Below, piece after piece: positions 40,456 through 49,919 of a stretch of 64,000 nt of DNA (position 1 is the first letter of the stretch; every line of letters begins with the position of its first letter). Origin of the DNA: Gammaproteobacteria bacterium (lineage in GTDB: Bacteria; Pseudomonadota; Gammaproteobacteria; UBA1113). The stretch spans positions 1,306 to 65,305 of the forward strand of contig CBDDLJ010000008.1 of assembly GCA_965230635.1 (NCBI GenBank), written 5' to 3'. Position numbers and translations under genes: made by a program. The notes under the pieces are model-generated. The model was given only the letters and a program-made list of their open reading frames with translations. It was not told the origin of the DNA and did not search any database.

Positions 40456-41178
40456 ATGACAAAGAATAAAACAAACGAAAATTCTCTGCCTCCTTATACT
40501 ACTCGGATTAGTCAGCGAGCTAAATATTTACAAATCAAAATTTCAGCAAAGAAAGGTGTGGAGATTATCGTCCCCAAAAAATTACCACGCAAAATTAGTA
40601 TTAATGATTTTATTCAATCCAAACGAGATTGGATAATCCAACAATACACAAAAATTGCCAATCTGCCGCACAAAAAAGCAACACTCCCTAAACAAATAAA
40701 ATTAGCCTTTCTCAATGAATGCTGGCAAGTGGATTATCAAATATCGTTAGGAAAATCTCAAATTATTGAAAGAACTAACCATGCCTTAATTGTTTTAAGT
40801 CATTCGATTGATTTTACTACTTGCAAAAGCTTGCTAATAGCATGGTTAAAAAAGCGAGCAAAAAATCATTTATTACCCTATCTAAATGAACTAAGCAAAC
40901 ACACTAACTTGCCTTATCAATGTGGAAAAATCCGCACACAAAAAACACGCTGGGGTAGTTGCTCTATGAATAGAGTTATTAACCTTAATTCACATCTTCT
41001 TTTTTTACCGTGCAATCTGGTCACTTATGTTTTAATTCATGAATTAGCACATACTATTCATTTAAATCACTTAGCAAAATTCTGGGCGCTAGTTGCGAAA
41101 CATGATCCTCATTATATAGAACATGAAAAACAGCTAAAACACATGAATAAACATGTACCTGATTGGGCATTAGTATAA
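40456..41178 (+). CDS. YgjP-like (DUF45/M48-family) zinc metallohydrolase
   Basis: The HEXXH motif is in the characteristic context LIHELAHTIHLNH near the C-terminus of a 240-aa protein. Confidence 0.6.
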   Translation: MTKNKTNENSLPPYTTRISQRAKYLQIKISAKKGVEIIVPKKLPRKISINDFIQSKRDWIIQQYTKIANLPHKKATLPKQIKLAFLNECWQVDYQISLGKSQIIERTNHALIVLSHSIDFTTCKSLLIAWLKKRAKNHLLPYLNELSKHTNLPYQCGKIRTQKTRWGSCSMNRVINLNSHLLFLPCNLVTYVLIHELAHTIHLNHLAKFWALVAKHDPHYIEHEKQLKHMNKHVPDWALV

Positions 41179-41482
41179 AAAAATGAATTGCGATATCTCA
41201 AGGTGCCAGTTGTAATACAGCAGCGTGCTTTAAGCAGTAATACCTATAGCCAGGATTATACCAAACTTCGCTCAACACAAATTAACATTGGCATTCAAAG
41301 CTTATTCGCAGTCAATCATACCTGATACTATATATTAAAGCAGAAAGCAACCATCATTAGTACCATTTAGTCTTTTACTCGATAATGTCATAATGACTGC
41401 TGAACAAGATATTCTATTGACACATTTATTGTTGTGTGTTATTTTCAGGCAATGGCTATAATTCATAAATTATGGGAGAGTA

Positions 41483-42991
41483 TTGATAATGAATAAAAGT
41501 GAAACGTTTAAAGATCTAAAAGACTTGGCAAGAGACCAACGCTTTAATACTCTAGGAAAGCAGTTCCTTACTTCTACTAACTTCATGAATAATTTGATGA
41601 GCTTAGTGGAGAATGATAACAACTTCGATGAAGTAAAAATACAAATAAGCACTTGCCCAGACAGACTTTATGAGCCGTTAAACATTGATCTTGAAACACT
41701 TTTGCACTATGCAGTTAAAGCAGGTGCAAAAAAAAATGTTGCATACCTTCTATCAGAAGGAGCTAATGCTAACCAGAAAAATGAGAATGACCAAACACCT
41801 TTTATGTATTGTATTATCTACGACAAAAAAGCTTTCTTTGACTTATTCTTAACAAAGAAAATCGACTTCAGCATTAAAGATAAAAATAATAATACAGCAT
41901 TACATCATGTTTTTTTAACCTCAGAAGGAGATCTTCGAAAGGCTAATAGTGATTTTTTAGAAGCCATCATAGAGAAATTCACACAGGCAAATATCGACTT
42001 GAACCCTTTGAACAATAGTGGTTTTTCTCCTCTATCTCTCGCTGAACAAGCTGCAGATCAAAAAAGTAAAAAAATACTTATAGATGCAATCGAACAAGCC
42101 AGTATTTCTCATGAAGAAAGACCTAAAAATAAAACGAGACCTCAACTATCGCTTGAAGCAGAAAAGCAAAACGCTTCCCCTCGTGCCTACTCCACTAGCT
42201 CAATGATAAAAGAATTTTCTTGTAAAATAGACATGCCTGAGGCTACTCCAGAAAGCTTTTCTTATGAACATTTACAACAAAAACTCAATTTCAATAACCG
42301 TAATGATCTTAGCCATCCAACAAAAGCAAGTATGATTGGCGGTTTATCGATACTACACAATCACTTTATATGGCAAGGCTACCTGGCTACCGTTAAAGAA
42401 TTAGATATAACGCAATGTAAGCAGGCATCTATAGACGAAAAACATAGTGCCTGTGAACAAATCATCAAAGCTGTAAAAGATGCTCTGTTGACATACCTTA
42501 CAATTTGGGGGCAAGCATCTCCTCATACGACAAGAGAAATAAACAATACCCTTGTAACCAAACTTGAAACCAAAAGAACATCCTATGTAGAATTAAATGG
42601 CATTCAGCTTATTGACTTTAACCTAGAAAAAACTGTCAAAAACATTATTGGTTTTTTGAAAAACGGTTCCGGACAATGGAACCCAGGCAAGCGACTAAAA
42701 AATACATCTGACTATCAAAAAAACAATGGACCATCAATTAAAGTATTACTCATGAAAAATTTGCTCACTATACCACTGTTTAATCGCAAAGTTCAAAATA
42801 ATCGGATCACCTTAGTCACACGAACTGAAATAGAACATGGGCTTGAATACGACTTGGATTTAACTAAAAGAAATTTTGGTGGTTGTTATATCTCCGGCTT
42901 GATTTGTTTCTTTGAAAATGAATGCAAACGCTTTGCAGGATTAGGCCAAAATCCTAGAGAACTAACAGAAACAATACTATGTCAGAGATAA
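41483..42991 (+). CDS. Ankyrin-repeat protein (eukaryotic-like; effector candidate)
   Basis: ANK repeats include TLLHYAVKAGAKKNVAYLLSEGANANQKNENDQTPFMYCIIYDKKAFFDLFLTKKIDFSIKDKNNNTALHHV and GFSPLSLAEQAADQKSKKILIDAI. The C-terminal 300 aa have no recognisable domain. Confidence 0.6.
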   Translation: MIMNKSETFKDLKDLARDQRFNTLGKQFLTSTNFMNNLMSLVENDNNFDEVKIQISTCPDRLYEPLNIDLETLLHYAVKAGAKKNVAYLLSEGANANQKNENDQTPFMYCIIYDKKAFFDLFLTKKIDFSIKDKNNNTALHHVFLTSEGDLRKANSDFLEAIIEKFTQANIDLNPLNNSGFSPLSLAEQAADQKSKKILIDAIEQASISHEERPKNKTRPQLSLEAEKQNASPRAYSTSSMIKEFSCKIDMPEATPESFSYEHLQQKLNFNNRNDLSHPTKASMIGGLSILHNHFIWQGYLATVKELDITQCKQASIDEKHSACEQIIKAVKDALLTYLTIWGQASPHTTREINNTLVTKLETKRTSYVELNGIQLIDFNLEKTVKNIIGFLKNGSGQWNPGKRLKNTSDYQKNNGPSIKVLLMKNLLTIPLFNRKVQNNRITLVTRTEIEHGLEYDLDLTKRNFGGCYISGLICFFENECKRFAGLGQNPRELTETILCQR

Positions 42992-43057
42992 CTTTTTTGA
43001 CAAGCATATTGACAAAATCAAAATCAGTAGACATGAATATGAGTAAGTCTAAAGCGA

Positions 43058-43615
43058 TTACTTTATTTTCTTGCTTATCATATCTAGTATAAATTTGACT
43101 CTTACTGCTGGCTCAGCCATTGGAATATCGGTAATGCGATAACCTAACTCATCATATCTTGCTCTTACGTCTTCGCCAAACTGCTTGGCTTGCTCAAATG
43201 TCATTTTGCGCTCATCATCATTCTGATATATCTCTTCCCAGGCAGAAAGAAAAAACACTTCGCCATTATATTGATATTGATGAGAAGCATAGGTATAGAC
43301 TCTCCGATCTAAATCAAAAAAATTGGCATAGCTTATATTATCTGGAATACCGCGGTCATATAGCACAGGCCCTTTGTGATCTACCATTTGCTTAAATTGA
43401 TAGATTGATCGTGATAACAGCAACTCAGCAAATAATGTCGGATCATGTTCAGGAAGGCCACCTCCACCTATAGCTCTTTGCTCTGCTAATATCTGTCTAG
43501 CAGGCTCATCAATACATACAAAGTCTAGTTTTCTTAGTTCCTGGAGAATTGTTGATTTTCCAGCACCCATAGCGCCAGTGATAATAAAGTAATTTTCTTT
43601 AATATTTTTAACCAT
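43058..43615 (-). CDS. Small P-loop NTPase/kinase-like protein (AAA_28/AAA_33-like)
   Basis: The Walker A IITGAMGAGKSTIL is present. The protein is 185 aa. Confidence 0.5.
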   Translation of the reverse strand: MVKNIKENYFIITGAMGAGKSTILQELRKLDFVCIDEPARQILAEQRAIGGGGLPEHDPTLFAELLLSRSIYQFKQMVDHKGPVLYDRGIPDNISYANFFDLDRRVYTYASHQYQYNGEVFFLSAWEEIYQNDDERKMTFEQAKQFGEDVRARYDELGYRITDIPMAEPAVRVKFILDMISKKIK

Positions 43616-43701
43616 ACATAAGCCTACGCTTCAATCCTCAACAATTTTGTGTCAATGCTCCTTGATCCCAAAAGGCAGCGTTATGCTGCCATACTTTTCT
43701 G

Positions 43702-44211
43702 CTACCTCTCATTAGTTATTCCATAAATTTCAACATCAATACCTTGAATGATTGTTTTTTTGATTAAAAGCATACCGACCTTCGATGCAACTTTTTTCGA
43801 TGCAATGTTTTCCAGATGAATAATTGAAATTAGTTTTTGAATATTCAGGACGTTAAAAGCATGATCTTTTACTTCTTGAGCAGCTTCTGTTGCTAATCCT
43901 TGTCCCCAGTATTTTTTAGCTAAACGATAGCCTAATTCGATGCATTCTTTATCATCAACGACTTGCTTGATAAGACCACAAAATCCAATTAACTCATTTG
44001 ATTTTTTATGGATTAATACTATTAAGCCAAACCCCTGGTTTTCATAGGCTTTAATCCATTTAGCTACTTTGATTTGTGTTTGCTTTCTGTCGTGAGCACC
44101 ACCGCCAATATATTTCATCACGTCAGGATCAGCACATATTGCAGAAAACACATCAATATCATTACTACAAAATGGCCTCATAAGCAGACGATCTGTTTCA
44201 ACGACTTTCAT
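43702..44211 (-). CDS. GNAT family N-acetyltransferase (RimJ/RimL-like)
   Basis: The motifs GFGLIVLIHKKSNELIGFCGL and LAKKYWGQGLATEAA form the acetyl-CoA binding region. Confidence 0.7.
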   Translation of the reverse strand: MKVVETDRLLMRPFCSNDIDVFSAICADPDVMKYIGGGAHDRKQTQIKVAKWIKAYENQGFGLIVLIHKKSNELIGFCGLIKQVVDDKECIELGYRLAKKYWGQGLATEAAQEVKDHAFNVLNIQKLISIIHLENIASKKVASKVGMLLIKKTIIQGIDVEIYGITNER

Positions 44212-44329: not shown

Positions 44330-44406
44330 TGGCGCGCCCGGAGAGATTCGAACTCCCGACCGCCTGGTTCGTAGCCAGGTACTCTATCCAGCTGAGCTAC
44401 GGGCGC
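44330..44406 (-). tRNA. tRNA-Arg (anticodon ACG)
   Basis: Reverse-complement sequence: GCGCCCGTAGCTCAGCTGGATAGAGTACCTGGCTACGAACCAGGCGGTCGGGAGTTCGAATCTCTCCGGGCGCGCCA. The anticodon loop is CUACGAA. Confidence 0.85.
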
Positions 44407-44440: not shown

Positions 44441-44533
44441 TGGCGGAGAGAGAGGGATTCGAACCCTCGATGAAGTTATAAGCCCCATACTCCCTTAGCA
44501 GGGGAGCGCCTTCAGCCGCTCGGCCATCTCTCC
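44441..44533 (-). tRNA. tRNA-Ser (anticodon GCT), class II with a long variable arm
   Basis: Reverse-complement sequence: GGAGAGATGGCCGAGCGGCTGAAGGCGCTCCCCTGCTAAGGGAGTATGGGGCTTATAACTTCATCGAGGGTTCGAATCCCTCTCTCTCCGCCA. The anticodon loop is CUGCUAA. Confidence 0.85.
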
Positions 44534-45204
44534 GATGCATGTAATAATGTACCATACTGCTCGCTACTAGTGCCTTAGCAAAGTGCAACGAAAGCAGGCA
44601 AAATCACAAGTGCTGTAGTATATACTCATTACACTTAGAGATGCAATCTTTCTGCCTCCTCTGGATCATCAGCGTTTTTTGATGACAAAACTCTCACCGA
44701 AACAAAATTGATCGCCTAAATAATCAACACAAGCAGTTTTCTTACAAACACCCTGTTTTTAAGCAATTCTGTTACTTTTAGCGGTGTTTACCGTATTATT
44801 TTCTCCATTTTTCTACAAAATGTTTATAATTTTTACAGTAGACTATTTTTACATCAGTCAATTTTCGCCCATTTTTTTAAGCCTGTTCTGCTGTTTTTTT
44901 AACCACTGAATTATCAGGACACGACCGTCGCGCCGTAAAAGCAAGGCGTACAAACCGCTATTGTGCTCAAGACGATTAATATCGCTAACACGCCAGCTAA
45001 ATTAAGCAAAATTAACGACAAAACCATCTCCGTATCATTCCAGCTTTGTGTTTTTTTTGAGCATTTACTGTAGGATCTGGGTAAATCCGCCAATAGCTAA
45101 TTCTGCGTGCAAGGACAACGCTGCAAACCCAGTCAACGCCAATACCGTTTTTTCACTTTGGTACTAAAACGGTAGAGTGTTTTTTAGCATGATCACTTCA
45201 CTCT

Positions 45205-45310
45205 CTTTTTTCTCTCAATGGGTCACGGCGGCTCTTTCTTAAAAAATAATTCTAACTCAGATCTCATTGAGAAAAGAGGGTTCCTATTTATTTAGATGCA
45301 ATATCCAGAA
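45205..45310. repeat. Direct repeat, copy 1 (about 100 bp), immediately downstream of the paralog B stop. It is homologous to the 5' leader of paralog B at 49345..49440.
   Basis: Copy 1 reads ...ggtcacggcggctctttcttaaaaaataattctaactcagatctcattgagaaaagagggttcctatttatttagatgcaatatccag. Copy 2 reads ...gggcgacggttgttttttagaaagtaattctaactcatttatcttagtgagaaaagagagctcctatttatttagatgaaatatcag. Identity is about 80-85%. Confidence 0.55.
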
Positions 45311-45318
45311 TACCTTGC

Positions 45319-48300
45319 TCATTGCATAACCCGCCTGATATTCCTGTAGCTTGTTTGCACACTGCTCTTTTCAGTATGTTGTGAAGAAAAAAAACTCATT
45401 ACTGATTTAGAAAATAAACTCAACTTAGAGAGAATGCTGACTGAATTGTCAATATCCATTCTATAAGGCTGCAGATCTTGTTTGATTTGCTGAATAATAG
45501 ACTGCGACAATGCTAATTGTTCTGTTTGTCCTGCTTGCACCACAACCACAGTGCTGGCTTGCTCATACACTAATACACGATGTTTTACTAATTGTTCCCT
45601 AATATACTGGCGACTCTTATCATGAATTTTCTTATACAAAGGCAATAGTAAATGCACTGGGATATCGCCGGAGTGTGATAGATCACCTCCAAAACTGTCT
45701 GTGAACAAAAAACTATCTAGAGAGGCTTGGACTTTATTTGGCTGCTTGAACAATTGAATTTCACTTGTCGTCAACCTGCCGCTAAAATATTCACTTACTT
45801 TCTTATCCTGACATAACACCAATAATACCGCATCCATCAATTCTGGGGTTGGTGACAAATGCTTAACGGCGCTTATCCCCAGCTCACCGCGAACATAATT
45901 ACTTACCGTCTTATCCCGAACGAATGCCAATACCACATCCACCGACAAATACGAAGCGGCGCTTTTCGCCAACTTGCAGCGAAAATAATCCATCAACGTC
46001 TCATCCTGAAGGAACGCCAATACCGCATCCACATATTCTGGGATTGGTGACAAATGCGTAACAATGCTTTTCATAACCCTGCCGCGAACATCCTCATTTA
46101 CCGCCTCATCCTGAAGGAACGCCAATACCGCATCCACACATTCTGGAGTTTGTGACAAATGCTCAACGACGCTTATCGCTAGATCCTCGCGATAATAATC
46201 ACTTGCCGTCTCATCCCGAAGGAACGCCAATACCGCATCCATACATTCTGGGATTTTTGACAAATGCGTAACGACGCTTTTCATAACCATGCCGCGAGCA
46301 CGATTACCTACCGCCTTATCCTGAAGGAACGCCAATACCGCATCCACCAATTCTGGAGTTGGTGGCAAATGCGCAACAGCACTTCTGGCCAGCATGCCGC
46401 GAATATAATCACTTGCCGTCTCATTCCGAAGGAATGCCAGTAACGCATCCACCAATTCTGGAGTTGGTGACAAATGCGCAACAGCACTTCTGGCCAGCGC
46501 GCCGCGAACACGATCCTCTACCGTCTCATCCCAAAGGAACGCCAATACTGCATCCACACATTCTGGGGTTTGTGAGAAATACGCAGCGACGCTTCTCGCC
46601 AGATTGTCGCGAACATAATTATCTACCGCCTTATCCCGAAGGAACGCCAATACCGCATCCACACATTCTGGAGTTTGTGGCAAATACACAGCGCCTCTAA
46701 TCGCCAGCGCGCCGCGAACACGATCCTCTACCGTCTCATCCCGAAGGAACAGCAATACCGCATGCACACATTCTGGGGTTTGTGGCAAATACGCAACGAC
46801 GCTGCTTGCCAGCGCGAGACGAACAGAGTCACTTACCTTCTCATTCCGAAGTAACGCCCATATCGCATCCGCAAATCCTGGGGTTTGTGACAAGTGTGCA
46901 ATGGCACTTCTCGCTAGTTCGCTGCGAACATCTCCATCCACTTGCTCATCCCGAAGGAACGCCCATACTGTGTCCACAAATTCTGAGGTTGGTGGCAGAT
47001 GCGAAACGGCACTTCTCACCAGATCGCAACGAACATACCTACCATCCAATTGCTCATCCCGAAGCAACGCCCATACTGCATCCACAAACTCTGGGGTTAG
47101 TGGCAGATGCGAAACGGCATTCCTCACCAGATTGCAACGAAGATGACCACTTACCGTCTCATCCAAAAGGAACACCGATACCGTACCCACACATTCTGGG
47201 GTTTGTGGCAAATACGCAGCGACGCTTTTCGCTAGCTCACCGCGAAAATAACCACTTACCGTCTGATTCAGAAGAAACGCCAATACCGTATCGGCATTCA
47301 AGCGAATGAGCCTAGGATGCATGGAAAAAATATCTATTGTAGTCTGCTGCCATGATTCTGGCAGCTCGTTAAACCGCTTTATAAGTTGTTTAACTGCACG
47401 CAACAAGGTTTGCTGTTGTAAGCCTATTACATGTGTGTCCGTACTAGAGGGCAAACTTGATTCCAAACAACGCATCAGCAAATCAAACTCAACAAACCCA
47501 AGCCAGTCTTTGGGACCTGCTACTAAAGTCGACAGAAAATCATCTAATACTGTCGGATATCGACTCAACAAACCGGCTACTGATGGCCATACTAAGGTGA
47601 AATTGGGATGATATTTATACCTATGGATGACTTGCGTTAAGTGTGTTTTTTTCTCTTCTGTGCCTTGTCTCAACGTCACGGCTATCACGTTTGCCGCTAA
47701 AAATTCTTGAAACGATAAATGGAGAAATTCATACCTCTGGTGTGCTTTTATTGCACGCCCAACTTGCTTCAATAAGCCTAATGCTCTCAACGCTGGCACA
47801 TTGAGTTGCTTTAACCGATTCTCCGATAATAATGTAGGGCTTTCATCACTGCTCTGAACGCCTTTTAACCAGCTGATGGGTAATTGCGCAGTATCTTGCC
47901 GTAACCCTTCAAAGGCCCAACACCCTAACGTGTCCAATAAACAGCGGATACTGGGGACTTCTAATACCATTTCATCATCTAATAACTTATTTTCATCCAA
48001 TTCACCTATTTTGGCCAGATAGCGCCGGCACACATTCACCATCAGCGACTCATACAAATCACTCACCGACATCTCACTCAGCAGTACCGGCTTATCGTGT
48101 TGACAAGTGGTTTCCCACCAAGTTTTGAGTAAATACGCATTAATCGGGATATGCACTATCGCCCAAAGGTCTGGATTCTGTTTTATGTCTTTAATAAAAT
48201 TATTGGTACGCCCAGTCGCTCCCAAATGTTTATTAAAAAACGTGAGCACACTCTCATCGGAAAAGCCTTGGATTTCCACCAACCTGTCATGGCTTAGCCA

Positions 48301-49296
48301 TTGCCGTAAATTGCTTACCGCATAAGGCCTTGTCGTTACCAATTTCTTAAACGGCAATCCAAATAATTGCTTAAGCAAACCATGCCAAGGACTGTCCATC
48401 TCAAACATCGGTAACTCATCTAAACCATCTAGCAAAAGTAAATACTTATCAGGAGCCTCACGCCATCGTGATAAGAGTTCTGCTGCCTCAGCAACCAACA
48501 TGTCTAACCCATTCCAGCACGTAAGACGCAATAACTCGGTAATACCCCATGCTGAGATATTGGGCCCCATTATCTCCGGACGCAAACTGCGACAACGAAT
48601 AATCAATACCCCATCAAAATCTGACCACAACCCTTCTTTACCCTCGCCTTGTTTGAAAAGCGCCCATTGGTAAGCAATATAATCTATCAAGGTTGTCTTA
48701 CCTACACCTGCCGCCCCGGATACCACAACCGTATCGATAGATACTGATGACTTGCCATTGGCACCTTGATAGGCTGAGGGTTGAAACAAATCACTCGGTG
48801 CAATAGCTTCTTTTTTACCGACCAGTCTATCACGCTCTCGTAATGGTTTGTGAGAGCGCTTATCGTCATTGCTTTGCGTTACCTCATTTCTCTCATAAGC
48901 TTTCACCACCACCTGAAGATTGACAAAATAATCTGCTAGCGAAAAGTAATCCGTATCAAATAAGCGCTTGTTCACAAAGCTTGTCTCGGTATAGTGGGCT
49001 GTTAATTGTGTTTGCAAGCGCTGCAGTAAATCAGGAAAAACAGGCTGCGTTTGAGGTGACTGACTTTCAGTTTTATTAAAACTGTCCTTAATTGTTAGAT
49101 TCACATTAACCTGCCCTTGCTCCGAAGCAGAATTATTTTTAAAAGGTATGGTAATGCAAGGCATGTCAGTTAGCGGGGATTTTTCTCCAGCTAATTTTTC
49201 GGTTGATGCTTCAGATGCTTTATTAAGGGCCATTGATGACGTGCCTGAGGGGGTTGCACTATCTGCTGTCGGTTGTGTAGTAGAACCGTTATCCAT
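45319..49296 (-). CDS. Giant STAND NTPase (paralog B, 1325 aa): short S/T-rich N-terminus, NACHT domain, about 15 HEAT-like 35-aa repeats, and a conserved C-terminal module
   Basis: Walker A VVVSGAAGVGKTTL (about 48694..48720), Walker B YLLLLDGLDELP, KKLVTTRPYA, QGF and HIPINAYLL define a NACHT domain. HEAT-like repeats (PECVDAVLAFLRDETVEDRVRGALARSAVAHLSPT) span 45741..47304. The C-terminal DIPVHLLLPLYKKIHDKSRQYIREQLVKHRVLVYEQ is shared. An AGGAGG Shine-Dalgarno sequence lies 5-10 nt upstream of the ATG at 49296. Confidence 0.8.
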   Translation of the reverse strand: MDNGSTTQPTADSATPSGTSSMALNKASEASTEKLAGEKSPLTDMPCITIPFKNNSASEQGQVNVNLTIKDSFNKTESQSPQTQPVFPDLLQRLQTQLTAHYTETSFVNKRLFDTDYFSLADYFVNLQVVVKAYERNEVTQSNDDKRSHKPLRERDRLVGKKEAIAPSDLFQPSAYQGANGKSSVSIDTVVVSGAAGVGKTTLIDYIAYQWALFKQGEGKEGLWSDFDGVLIIRCRSLRPEIMGPNISAWGITELLRLTCWNGLDMLVAEAAELLSRWREAPDKYLLLLDGLDELPMFEMDSPWHGLLKQLFGLPFKKLVTTRPYAVSNLRQWLSHDRLVEIQGFSDESVLTFFNKHLGATGRTNNFIKDIKQNPDLWAIVHIPINAYLLKTWWETTCQHDKPVLLSEMSVSDLYESLMVNVCRRYLAKIGELDENKLLDDEMVLEVPSIRCLLDTLGCWAFEGLRQDTAQLPISWLKGVQSSDESPTLLSENRLKQLNVPALRALGLLKQVGRAIKAHQRYEFLHLSFQEFLAANVIAVTLRQGTEEKKTHLTQVIHRYKYHPNFTLVWPSVAGLLSRYPTVLDDFLSTLVAGPKDWLGFVEFDLLMRCLESSLPSSTDTHVIGLQQQTLLRAVKQLIKRFNELPESWQQTTIDIFSMHPRLIRLNADTVLAFLLNQTVSGYFRGELAKSVAAYLPQTPECVGTVSVFLLDETVSGHLRCNLVRNAVSHLPLTPEFVDAVWALLRDEQLDGRYVRCDLVRSAVSHLPPTSEFVDTVWAFLRDEQVDGDVRSELARSAIAHLSQTPGFADAIWALLRNEKVSDSVRLALASSVVAYLPQTPECVHAVLLFLRDETVEDRVRGALAIRGAVYLPQTPECVDAVLAFLRDKAVDNYVRDNLARSVAAYFSQTPECVDAVLAFLWDETVEDRVRGALARSAVAHLSPTPELVDALLAFLRNETASDYIRGMLARSAVAHLPPTPELVDAVLAFLQDKAVGNRARGMVMKSVVTHLSKIPECMDAVLAFLRDETASDYYREDLAISVVEHLSQTPECVDAVLAFLQDEAVNEDVRGRVMKSIVTHLSPIPEYVDAVLAFLQDETLMDYFRCKLAKSAASYLSVDVVLAFVRDKTVSNYVRGELGISAVKHLSPTPELMDAVLLVLCQDKKVSEYFSGRLTTSEIQLFKQPNKVQASLDSFLFTDSFGGDLSHSGDIPVHLLLPLYKKIHDKSRQYIREQLVKHRVLVYEQASTVVVVQAGQTEQLALSQSIIQQIKQDLQPYRMDIDNSVSILSKLSLFSKSVMSFFSSQHTEKSSVQTSYRNIRRVMQ
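45741..47304 (-). repeat. In-frame tandem array of 105-bp (35-aa) HEAT/E-Z-type repeats inside paralog B
   Basis: The repeats are highly regular: TPE(C/L/F)VDAV(L/W)AFL(R/Q)DE(T/Q)V...VR..LA.SAVAHLS. Long antisense stop-free pseudo-ORFs are present. Confidence 0.75.
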
Positions 49297-49300
49297 AATA

Positions 49301-49306
49301 CCTCCT
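49301..49306 (-). promoter_or_regulatory. Shine-Dalgarno sequence (AGGAGG) of paralog B
   Basis: The plus-strand cctcct at 49301-49306 is the reverse complement of AGGAGG. It lies 5 nt upstream of the ATG (reverse complement of cat at 49294-49296). Confidence 0.5.
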
Positions 49307-49344
49307 GTTGCAATATAATCACAAAAATTGGCTAAACTGGCTCA

Positions 49345-49440
49345 TCACAATATGGGCGACGGTTGTTTTTTAGAAAGTAATTCTAACTCATTTATCTTAG
49401 TGAGAAAAGAGAGCTCCTATTTATTTAGATGAAATATCAG
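49345..49440. repeat. Direct repeat, copy 2 (leader region upstream of paralog B)
   Basis: See the entry for copy 1 at 45205..45310. Confidence 0.55.
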
Positions 49441-49628
49441 TGTGGCGATTTTTGTTCACTCGAAAAATCGCTATATGACTATATTTTAACTATCACGAAC
49501 AGCAAAAAAATAAAATATTATTATTTATCAATTTATTAGAAAAAAATCTGTACTCTTCAATAAAAAATACATGACGTTGTTGATTAATTGTTAATCGATT
49601 TTCAAGGTGGACTAAAATATATACTTTG

Positions 49629-49662
49629 ATGGGTAAAACATACTCGAAATAATTATAGAACT
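49629..49662 (-). terminator. Candidate intrinsic terminator downstream of csrA
   Basis: The inverted repeat ctcgaaata-(N10)-tatttcgag is followed on the minus strand by a T-rich stretch. It lies 50-80 nt after the csrA stop. Confidence 0.3.
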
Positions 49663-49709
49663 ATTTCGAGCTGTATTTTTTTCGGTAATAATGCTGAAAC
49701 TGTTTAACA

Positions 49710-49919
49710 TTACACATCTTCACCGCTAGAGTCTTTCTGTTCAGGCTTTCCCTGCTTTTCTTCCTGTATACGTAAATAAATTTCTTCACGATGAACAGAC
49801 ACTTCTTTTGGAGCATTCACACCGATACGAACTTGGTTACCTTTAACACCAAGTACAGTCATTGTTACGTCATCTCCAATTATCAATGATTCACCGACAC
49901 GCCGTGTCAAAATGAGCAT
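49710..49919 (-). CDS. csrA: Carbon storage regulator CsrA
   Basis: [48 protein letters not shown] is nearly invariant in CsrA. Confidence 0.9.

Follow-up and report, generated by a model that had tools for sequence, protein, structure and literature searches.

A stretch of 64,000 nt from a gammaproteobacterial contig (assembly GCA_965230635.1, contig CBDDLJ010000008.1), referred to below as the window, encodes a large NACHT protein, paralog B, whose gene is bracketed by two copies of a short direct repeat, R upstream of the start codon and R′ past the stop codon. We tentatively favor, at somewhat short of an even chance, the interpretation that the two copies are the footprint of a segmental duplication, R′ being the orphaned outer edge of a downstream copy that has been lost. 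Although genuine, the repeats belong to an ordinary class of feature, and the expanded NACHT family, with its position just upstream of tRNA genes, is biologically the more interesting subject. The features on which the argument turns are the following:

49357..49438, minus strand: R, the upstream copy of the direct repeat (blastn, alignments, motif counts and GC content)
45226..45305, minus strand: R′, the downstream copy of the direct repeat (blastn and alignments)
45319..49296, minus strand: paralog B, an intact open reading frame (ORF) of 1325 aa (ORF list; Pfam PF05729)
49297..49353, minus strand: PL, the proximal leader, 57 nt before the ATG of B and outside the repeat (homology to the leaders of related genes in a metagenome contig, L001)

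When the two flanks of B were compared with the whole window by blastn, R and R′ aligned over 82 columns with 82.9% identity (E = 4e-18). This was the sole significant pair, and no third copy was found. A blastn comparison of flank against flank gave an E value of 5e-20, and chance is excluded as the source of the similarity. With indels taken into account, both MAFFT and global alignment extended the similarity to about 88–91 nt (approximately 49345–49441 and 45216–45309), with three small indels (1, 2 and 3 nt) along the way. Uninterrupted identity between the two copies reaches 17, 13 and 11 nt in the longest blocks; within the 64 kb the two longest of these, CATCTAAATAAATAGGA and TGAGTTAGAATTA, occur together only at the sites of R and R′. 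An earlier note on this DNA had described repeats of about 100 bp at 80–85% identity. The identity agrees with our measurement, while the length was slightly overstated, and both values lie well above the level at which that note proposed to abandon the repeat (less than 70% identity over less than 50 bp).

Both copies lie in direct orientation on the gene strand of B. R ends 3 nt ahead of PL, and R′ begins 10–13 nt (about 12) beyond the stop codon of B (45319–45321). Both are AT-rich, with a GC content of 29% for R and 34% for R′. As read from the sequence, the motif CTAAATAAATAG, present on the minus strand in R (49418–49429) and in R′ (45285–45296), provides stop codons in all three frames of the gene strand; its copy in R′ is situated about 25 nt past the stop codon of B itself.

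Relatives of B help to define what lies between the repeats. A protein search returned about 24 close paralogs with 60–69% identity and near-identical N-termini (MDNRSTTQPTADNAITSD), and more than 30 matches once related NACHT proteins, including ankyrin–NACHT proteins, are counted; all of them appear to come from one Legionellales-like assembly. The related contigs, L001 and L136 among them, belong to the ENA metagenome sample ERZ25074695. In L001, two family genes are arranged in tandem. The first is 80.9% identical to B over the whole gene, and the second shows 93.5% DNA identity over 1763 nt (91% at the protein level). Both alignments to B start at 49353, and that of the complete gene ends at 45318, one base beyond the stop codon. 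By these common bounds, the unit shared by the family consists of the 57-nt PL and the ORF.

PL is 92–93% identical to the leaders of both L001 genes (L001 9944–10000 and 14256–14312), so that across B and its L001 relatives the leader is at least as well conserved as the coding sequence. It contains an AGGAGG Shine–Dalgarno sequence, two TTGTGAT direct repeats 27 nt apart and the motif TGTGATTAT, which resembles an extended −10 element; no significant RNA fold was found in it. The earlier note had equated the repeat with the 5′ leader of B and had suggested that it was a regulatory element common to the family. The first needs correction and the second found no support: the 57 nt nearest to the ATG are not repeated past the gene, and the homology to the L001 genes stops at 49353, where R begins. 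On the strength of these alignments, the candidate regulatory segment common to the family is PL and not R. For reporter fusions or rapid amplification of cDNA ends, the conserved segment to consider is therefore 49297–49353 rather than the repeat.

The tandem genes in related contigs provide a close parallel to R and R′. In the L001 genes, PL is preceded by a 180-nt sequence that differs from R and is 95% identical between the two; it is part of a block of 237 bp of upstream DNA that is repeated in the tandem pair at 94.9% identity, compared with 81% for the coding sequences of the two paralogs. The tandem ARM–NACHT paralogs of L136 (9610–20261) share 390 nt of upstream DNA at 82% identity, their coding sequences being 85% identical. 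Tandem duplication in this family thus ordinarily leaves an upstream segment that recurs past the preceding gene. R, for its part, is contiguous with the upstream region of B itself across the 3-nt gap to PL, and the 82.9% identity of R and R′ falls within the range of the upstream repeats in these related tandem pairs (82–95%).

The genomic setting of B is defined by the following neighboring features:

49710..49919, minus strand: csrA, last gene of the recA-recX-alaS-lysC-csrA block (Pfam; gene order in relatives)
49439..49709, minus strand: AT-rich spacer from csrA to R, 26% GC (GC content; hairpin scan)
44534..45225, no strand assigned: spacer of 692 bp from R′ to tRNA-Ser, 38% GC (no coding, repeat or known-RNA remnant)
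44441..44533, minus strand: tRNA-Ser(GCT) (tRNA scan)
44330..44406, minus strand: tRNA-Arg(ACG) (tRNA scan)

The order of genes in the window is mutS, cinA, recA, recX, alaS, lysC, csrA, B, tRNA-Ser and tRNA-Arg, followed later by nadC-nadB-nadA, RmuC and UDG. The junction between csrA and tRNA-Ser is among the most conserved in proteobacterial genomes: in 20 of 22 lysC loci of other proteobacteria, tRNA-Ser(GCT) starts about 60–750 nt after lysC, mostly with tRNA-Arg(ACG) next to it. In relatives, csrA has tRNA-Ser as its immediate successor. The scan of genome contigs for lysC retrieved relatives of at most 67% identity and was used for gene order alone. The closest syntenic relative that we found, L082, encodes a LysC that is 75% identical and preserves the same mutS-cinA-recA-recX-alaS-lysC-csrA...nadCBA order. 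Its csrA gene is separated from tRNA-Ser by 185 bp and no NACHT gene is present, compared with 5176 bp in the window. About 4.1 of the 5.2 kb lie inside the interval from R to R′, and about 950 bp of the extra DNA fall outside it. These comparisons show B to be an insertion between csrA and tRNA-Ser with the repeats at its edges. The suggestion in the earlier note that B had been inserted is borne out by the empty junction of L082 and by the tRNA gene close to lysC in nearly all of the other loci. Its two tRNA genes below R′ were also found, both on the minus strand; its estimate of 670 bp of non-coding DNA in the same place needs correction to 692 bp, in which no coding remnant was detected.

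We propose that the repeats could have originated in three steps. A family unit made up of R, the 57-nt PL, the ORF and about 12 nt would first have arrived between csrA and tRNA-Ser. This unit would then have duplicated in tandem, and the leader and ORF of the second copy would later have been deleted, stranding its edge, R′, behind the stop codon of B. R would accordingly be ordinary upstream DNA, at most promoter-distal and not a transcribed leader, whereas R′ would be a relic without a gene. Both the former second copy and its deletion are what we infer from the arrangement that survives. The earlier note had likewise considered B to be the survivor of a tandem array, and the tandem pairs of L001 and L136, with their repeated upstream DNA, make this plausible; traces of a leader or an ORF past R′ did not turn up.

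The divergence of the repeats gives some indication of age. The Jukes–Cantor distance between R and R′ is about 0.20. The synonymous and nonsynonymous distances (dS and dN) between B and its closest L001 relative are 0.155 and 0.043, respectively, as estimated from 510 clean codons of a low-coverage contig with a frameshift. Since the distance between the repeats is at least as large as this dS, the duplication should be old, as expected for an array that has decayed. Moreover, the roughly 950 bp of extra DNA outside the unit, together with the coding-like 38% GC of the 692-bp spacer, fit more than one insertion or deletion event.

Several observations weigh against a lost tandem copy. Nothing past R′ resembles PL, the ORF or the 35-aa repeats encoded by the family genes: local alignment scores were no better than those of shuffled sequences, and nhmmer, hmmsearch, blastx and tblastx gave no match. 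PL, which is the best-conserved upstream part in the family, is missing past R′. The left end of the proposed deletion needs to fall within about 8 nt of the boundary between R and PL, which is a coincidence. Finally, R is not present upstream of the 93.5%-identical L001 gene.

The main rival, possible though unlikely, is that R and R′ are insertion joints similar to attachment (att) sites or long terminal repeats (LTRs). A circular or linear copy of the unit with an R-like sequence of its own would have recombined with a resident R between csrA and tRNA-Ser in a Campbell-type event, so that each side received one hybrid copy; the gene could afterwards be lost again by recombination of R with R′, with a solo R remaining. 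The geometry speaks for this explanation, as the repeats bracket the unit of family homology exactly, to within 3 nt on one side and about 12 nt on the other, and an R′ with no leader or gene behind it is accounted for with no special deletion. The site is a conserved junction that is empty in L082 and adjoins tRNA genes, and at 45% the GC content of B exceeds that of its flanks (26–38%) and of the window as a whole (39%). In addition, the L001 relative of B (9944–16018, corresponding to 45318–49353 of the window) lies behind another family gene and adjoins fragmented IS256-type (Transposase_mut) ORFs rather than csrA. The unit has therefore changed neighbors on a short time scale. On the other hand, neither the insert and its surroundings nor the window ORFs of at least 150 aa yielded a Pfam match to an integrase, a recombinase or a transposase. 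Both repeats lie clear of the tRNA genes; R′ is situated upstream of tRNA-Ser, 692 bp from its 5′ end. Given their 17% divergence and three indels, the copies must be old unless they differed from the outset. The explanation also requires a resident solo R, and of the 5.2 kb of extra DNA only about 4.1 kb are located between the repeats.

We also considered whether R might be a functional cis-regulatory module of the family, that is, a promoter, an operator or an element of the 5′ untranslated region, with R′ as a second active copy directed, for example, toward the tRNA operon. We regard this as unlikely. The position of R directly upstream of the conserved leader and the identity of the 17-, 13- and 11-nt blocks in both copies would be in keeping with such a role, as would a promoter-like sequence, TTGAGA-18-GATCAT (45189–45218, minus strand), which lies at the 3′ edge of R′ facing the spacer and tRNA-Ser and was recognized by consensus match only. 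Furthermore, the 237 bp upstream of the L001 genes are better conserved than their coding sequences, and therefore upstream DNA in this family can be constrained or homogenized. However, R is absent from the leaders of both L001 genes and of another family member, paralog A, which is described below. A consensus scan detected no sigma-70 site inside R or R′, although a weak or non-canonical promoter would escape such a scan; the only sigma-70-like sites nearby were the one at the edge of R′ (45218..45189) and one within PL overlapping the ATG, and the total of promoter-like sites in the region was below the mean of shuffled sequences. As read from the alignment, the 2-nt indel alters the spacing of the best hexamer candidates, and short ORFs across R switch frame between the copies.

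Nor did R qualify as an RNA element. At the gathering threshold, Rfam matched tRNAs only, and it returned nothing credible for R at E ≤ 5. Fold z-scores relative to shuffled sequences ranged from −0.22 to +1.35 on both strands, which is not what a structured RNA leader would be expected to give, and no terminator consensus was found in R. A conserved regulatory structure or promoter in the repeat, as the earlier note had envisaged, gains no support from Rfam, from folding or from the sigma-70 consensus. A conserved small ORF on the plus strand was rejected as well, the 2-nt indel shifting the frame between the copies and Pfam giving no match. R is also not a 3′ element of family genes: the DNA on the 3′ side of paralogs A and C, and of the family genes in L001 and L085, does not resemble it.

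More speculatively, NACHT (NLR-like) genes could be moved or exchanged among slots just upstream of tRNA genes by cassette shuffling, with R and R′ as the sites of recombination. R′ would then mark the edge of a slot, B occupying the one before tRNA-Ser and A the one before tRNA-Pro, and the bacterium that carries them would be an intracellular, Legionellales-like organism. Although we consider this improbable, it would, if true, amount to integrase-independent or trans-mobilized reshuffling of more than 30 receptor-like genes. No flanking direct repeats were found at paralog A or at P0026, a gene in locus L085.

The least convincing explanation, a generic dispersed repeat of the repetitive extragenic palindromic or miniature inverted-repeat transposable element (MITE) type present by coincidence at each side of B, is very improbable: the genome does have small palindromic elements (for example, 61041–61166), but R lacks terminal inverted repeats and a stable hairpin, its only two copies in 64 kb are both at the edges of B, and it is very unlikely that two random copies would bracket the unit to within a few bases. 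The other loci and collections that were searched gave no further copies either. R is absent upstream of the 93.5%-identical L001 gene's tandem partner and of paralog A, and more generally it is missing from L001, L085, L136 and the lysC loci, as well as from the DNA that flanks paralogs A and C within the window; no copy was seen in the 136 loci that were fetched, and two scans of JGI metagenomes gave 0 matches. A blastn search of plasmids with both flanks of B retrieved nothing. A 17-mer scan of viral contigs gave 50 matches reaching 20 nt, and 40 nt in one contig, which we take as chance.

How do R and R′ compare with known systems of flanking repeats? The closest likeness is to the tandem segmental duplicates of NLR/STAND genes, in which an upstream segment recurs past the preceding gene at a divergence similar to that of the paralogs themselves, as in the intact pairs of L001 and L136. 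Here, by contrast, the second gene and its PL are absent and the outer 82 bp alone are left, so that a tandem state at this locus is our inference. Genomic islands associated with tRNA genes, and their integrase-less derivatives (CIME-like elements), are flanked by imperfect direct repeats, attL and attR. The locus of B is similar in that imperfect repeats bracket a gene of higher GC content in a conserved junction beside tRNAs that is empty in a syntenic relative. It differs in that no integrase or recombinase is present and the repeat does not take in the 3′ end of any tRNA gene. The insertion, moreover, comprises just one gene and lies 692 bp from tRNA-Ser, on its 5′ side. The NACHT gene is the sole ORF between the repeats, and by Pfam the window ORFs of at least 150 aa contain housekeeping, ankyrin and NACHT domains only.

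Recombination between flanking direct repeats also underlies the dynamics of solo LTRs. The repeat–gene–repeat geometry seen here could be reduced to one repeat, and insertion at a single repeat could produce it; unlike an LTR, R has no retroelement features, and no solo copy was observed. An integron cassette is comparable in being a single promoter-poor gene followed at once by an element (attC) of about 60–140 bp, but R has no imperfect palindrome, there is no IntI-type gene among the window ORFs of at least 150 aa, and the element is also present upstream. Taken together, R and R′ behave as repeats do at the two ends of a gene unit that has been duplicated or inserted, and they fail the defining tests for a tRNA-island att pair, an integron attC site, a MITE and an RNA leader. 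In general terms, they look like a likely leftover of gene duplication or recombination.

The repeats are a small evolutionary scar, and their value is that of a marker. They fix the bounds of the copied unit, the 57-nt leader plus ORF, in a massively expanded NACHT family, and they indicate that such a unit entered the strongly conserved junction between csrA and tRNA-Ser. If R-like repeats edge other paralogs, this would point to a specific mechanism by which NLR-like genes spread in a host-associated bacterium; if they do not, routine decay of tandem duplicates would suffice.

The protein encoded by B has a NACHT NTPase domain at residues 188–358 (PF05729, E = 5.6e-19), followed by about 13 tandem repeats of 35 aa. 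At the DNA level these form a further feature:

45944..47292, minus strand: array of 105-bp (35-aa) repeats within B, with the same repeat in paralog C (repeat search)

The repeat units of B (45944–47292) and C (61586–64000) are 71–98% identical to one another, and two units of C, starting at 62181 and 62811, are 98% identical, which suggests that the array is rapidly reshuffled in this NLR-like family. In its architecture, the gene (not the repeat R) is similar to the bNACHT/Avs antiviral STAND NTPases, in which a NACHT P-loop domain precedes a C-terminal repeat array. B differs from them in having no match among PADLOC-DB v2 models and in having its approximately 24 close paralogs apparently within a single Legionellales-like assembly.

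Paralog A (20408–25570) encodes a protein of 1720 aa with ankyrin and NACHT domains and is located between ihfA and tRNA-Pro(GGG) (20010–20086). The neighboring ihfA is the end of a thrS-infC-rpmI-rplT-pheST-ihfA block. A is thus a second family member that lies on the immediate 5′ side of a tRNA gene where a conserved operon ends.

Other features of the region around B deserve mention. A terminator-like hairpin (49642–49671) lies directly past csrA. In the 692-bp spacer between R′ and tRNA-Ser, searches with blastx, tblastx, nhmmer (105-bp unit) and hmmsearch (35-aa unit), as well as Pfam analysis of small ORFs, found no decayed paralog or other gene. The spacer does contain a minus-strand ORF (44914–45027) for a strongly hydrophobic peptide of 37 aa (MVLSLILLNLAGVLAILIVLSTIAVCTPCFYGATVVS), or of 59 aa if read from an upstream TTG. 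The 59-aa form had 0 homologues among 5.8 billion proteins and no meaningful Pfam match. A small RNA of the Rsm/Csr type was also considered for the spacer and rejected, as it has neither a cluster of GGA motifs nor an Rfam match.

On the other side of the tRNA genes, the interval from tRNA-Arg(ACG) to nadC (40456–44211) encodes a GNAT acetyltransferase, an AAA_28 kinase-like protein, an ankyrin protein of 502 aa and a YgjP-like protein. The same interval in L082 (12136–12663) holds a small MscS-type channel gene alone. The neighborhood between tRNA-Arg and nadC is variable in general.

Elsewhere in the window, three consecutive, overlapping ORFs (5617–7881, 3714–5651 and 2948–3778) share between them the sequence of a large bacterial NAD-specific glutamate dehydrogenase. 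The split (2948–7881) could reflect frameshifts, a pseudogene or sequence errors. The palindromic element at 61041–61166, mentioned above, is a MITE-like sequence of 126 bp with perfect 23-nt terminal inverted repeats (CTGTATTGTTGACCTATACTAAG), situated downstream of paralog C among short broken ORFs. By eye, these ORFs look like a decayed transposase, with no Pfam match. A third, partial match to the CTGTATTGTTGACCTATACTAAG terminal repeat, with 3 mismatches, is found at 15232–15254.

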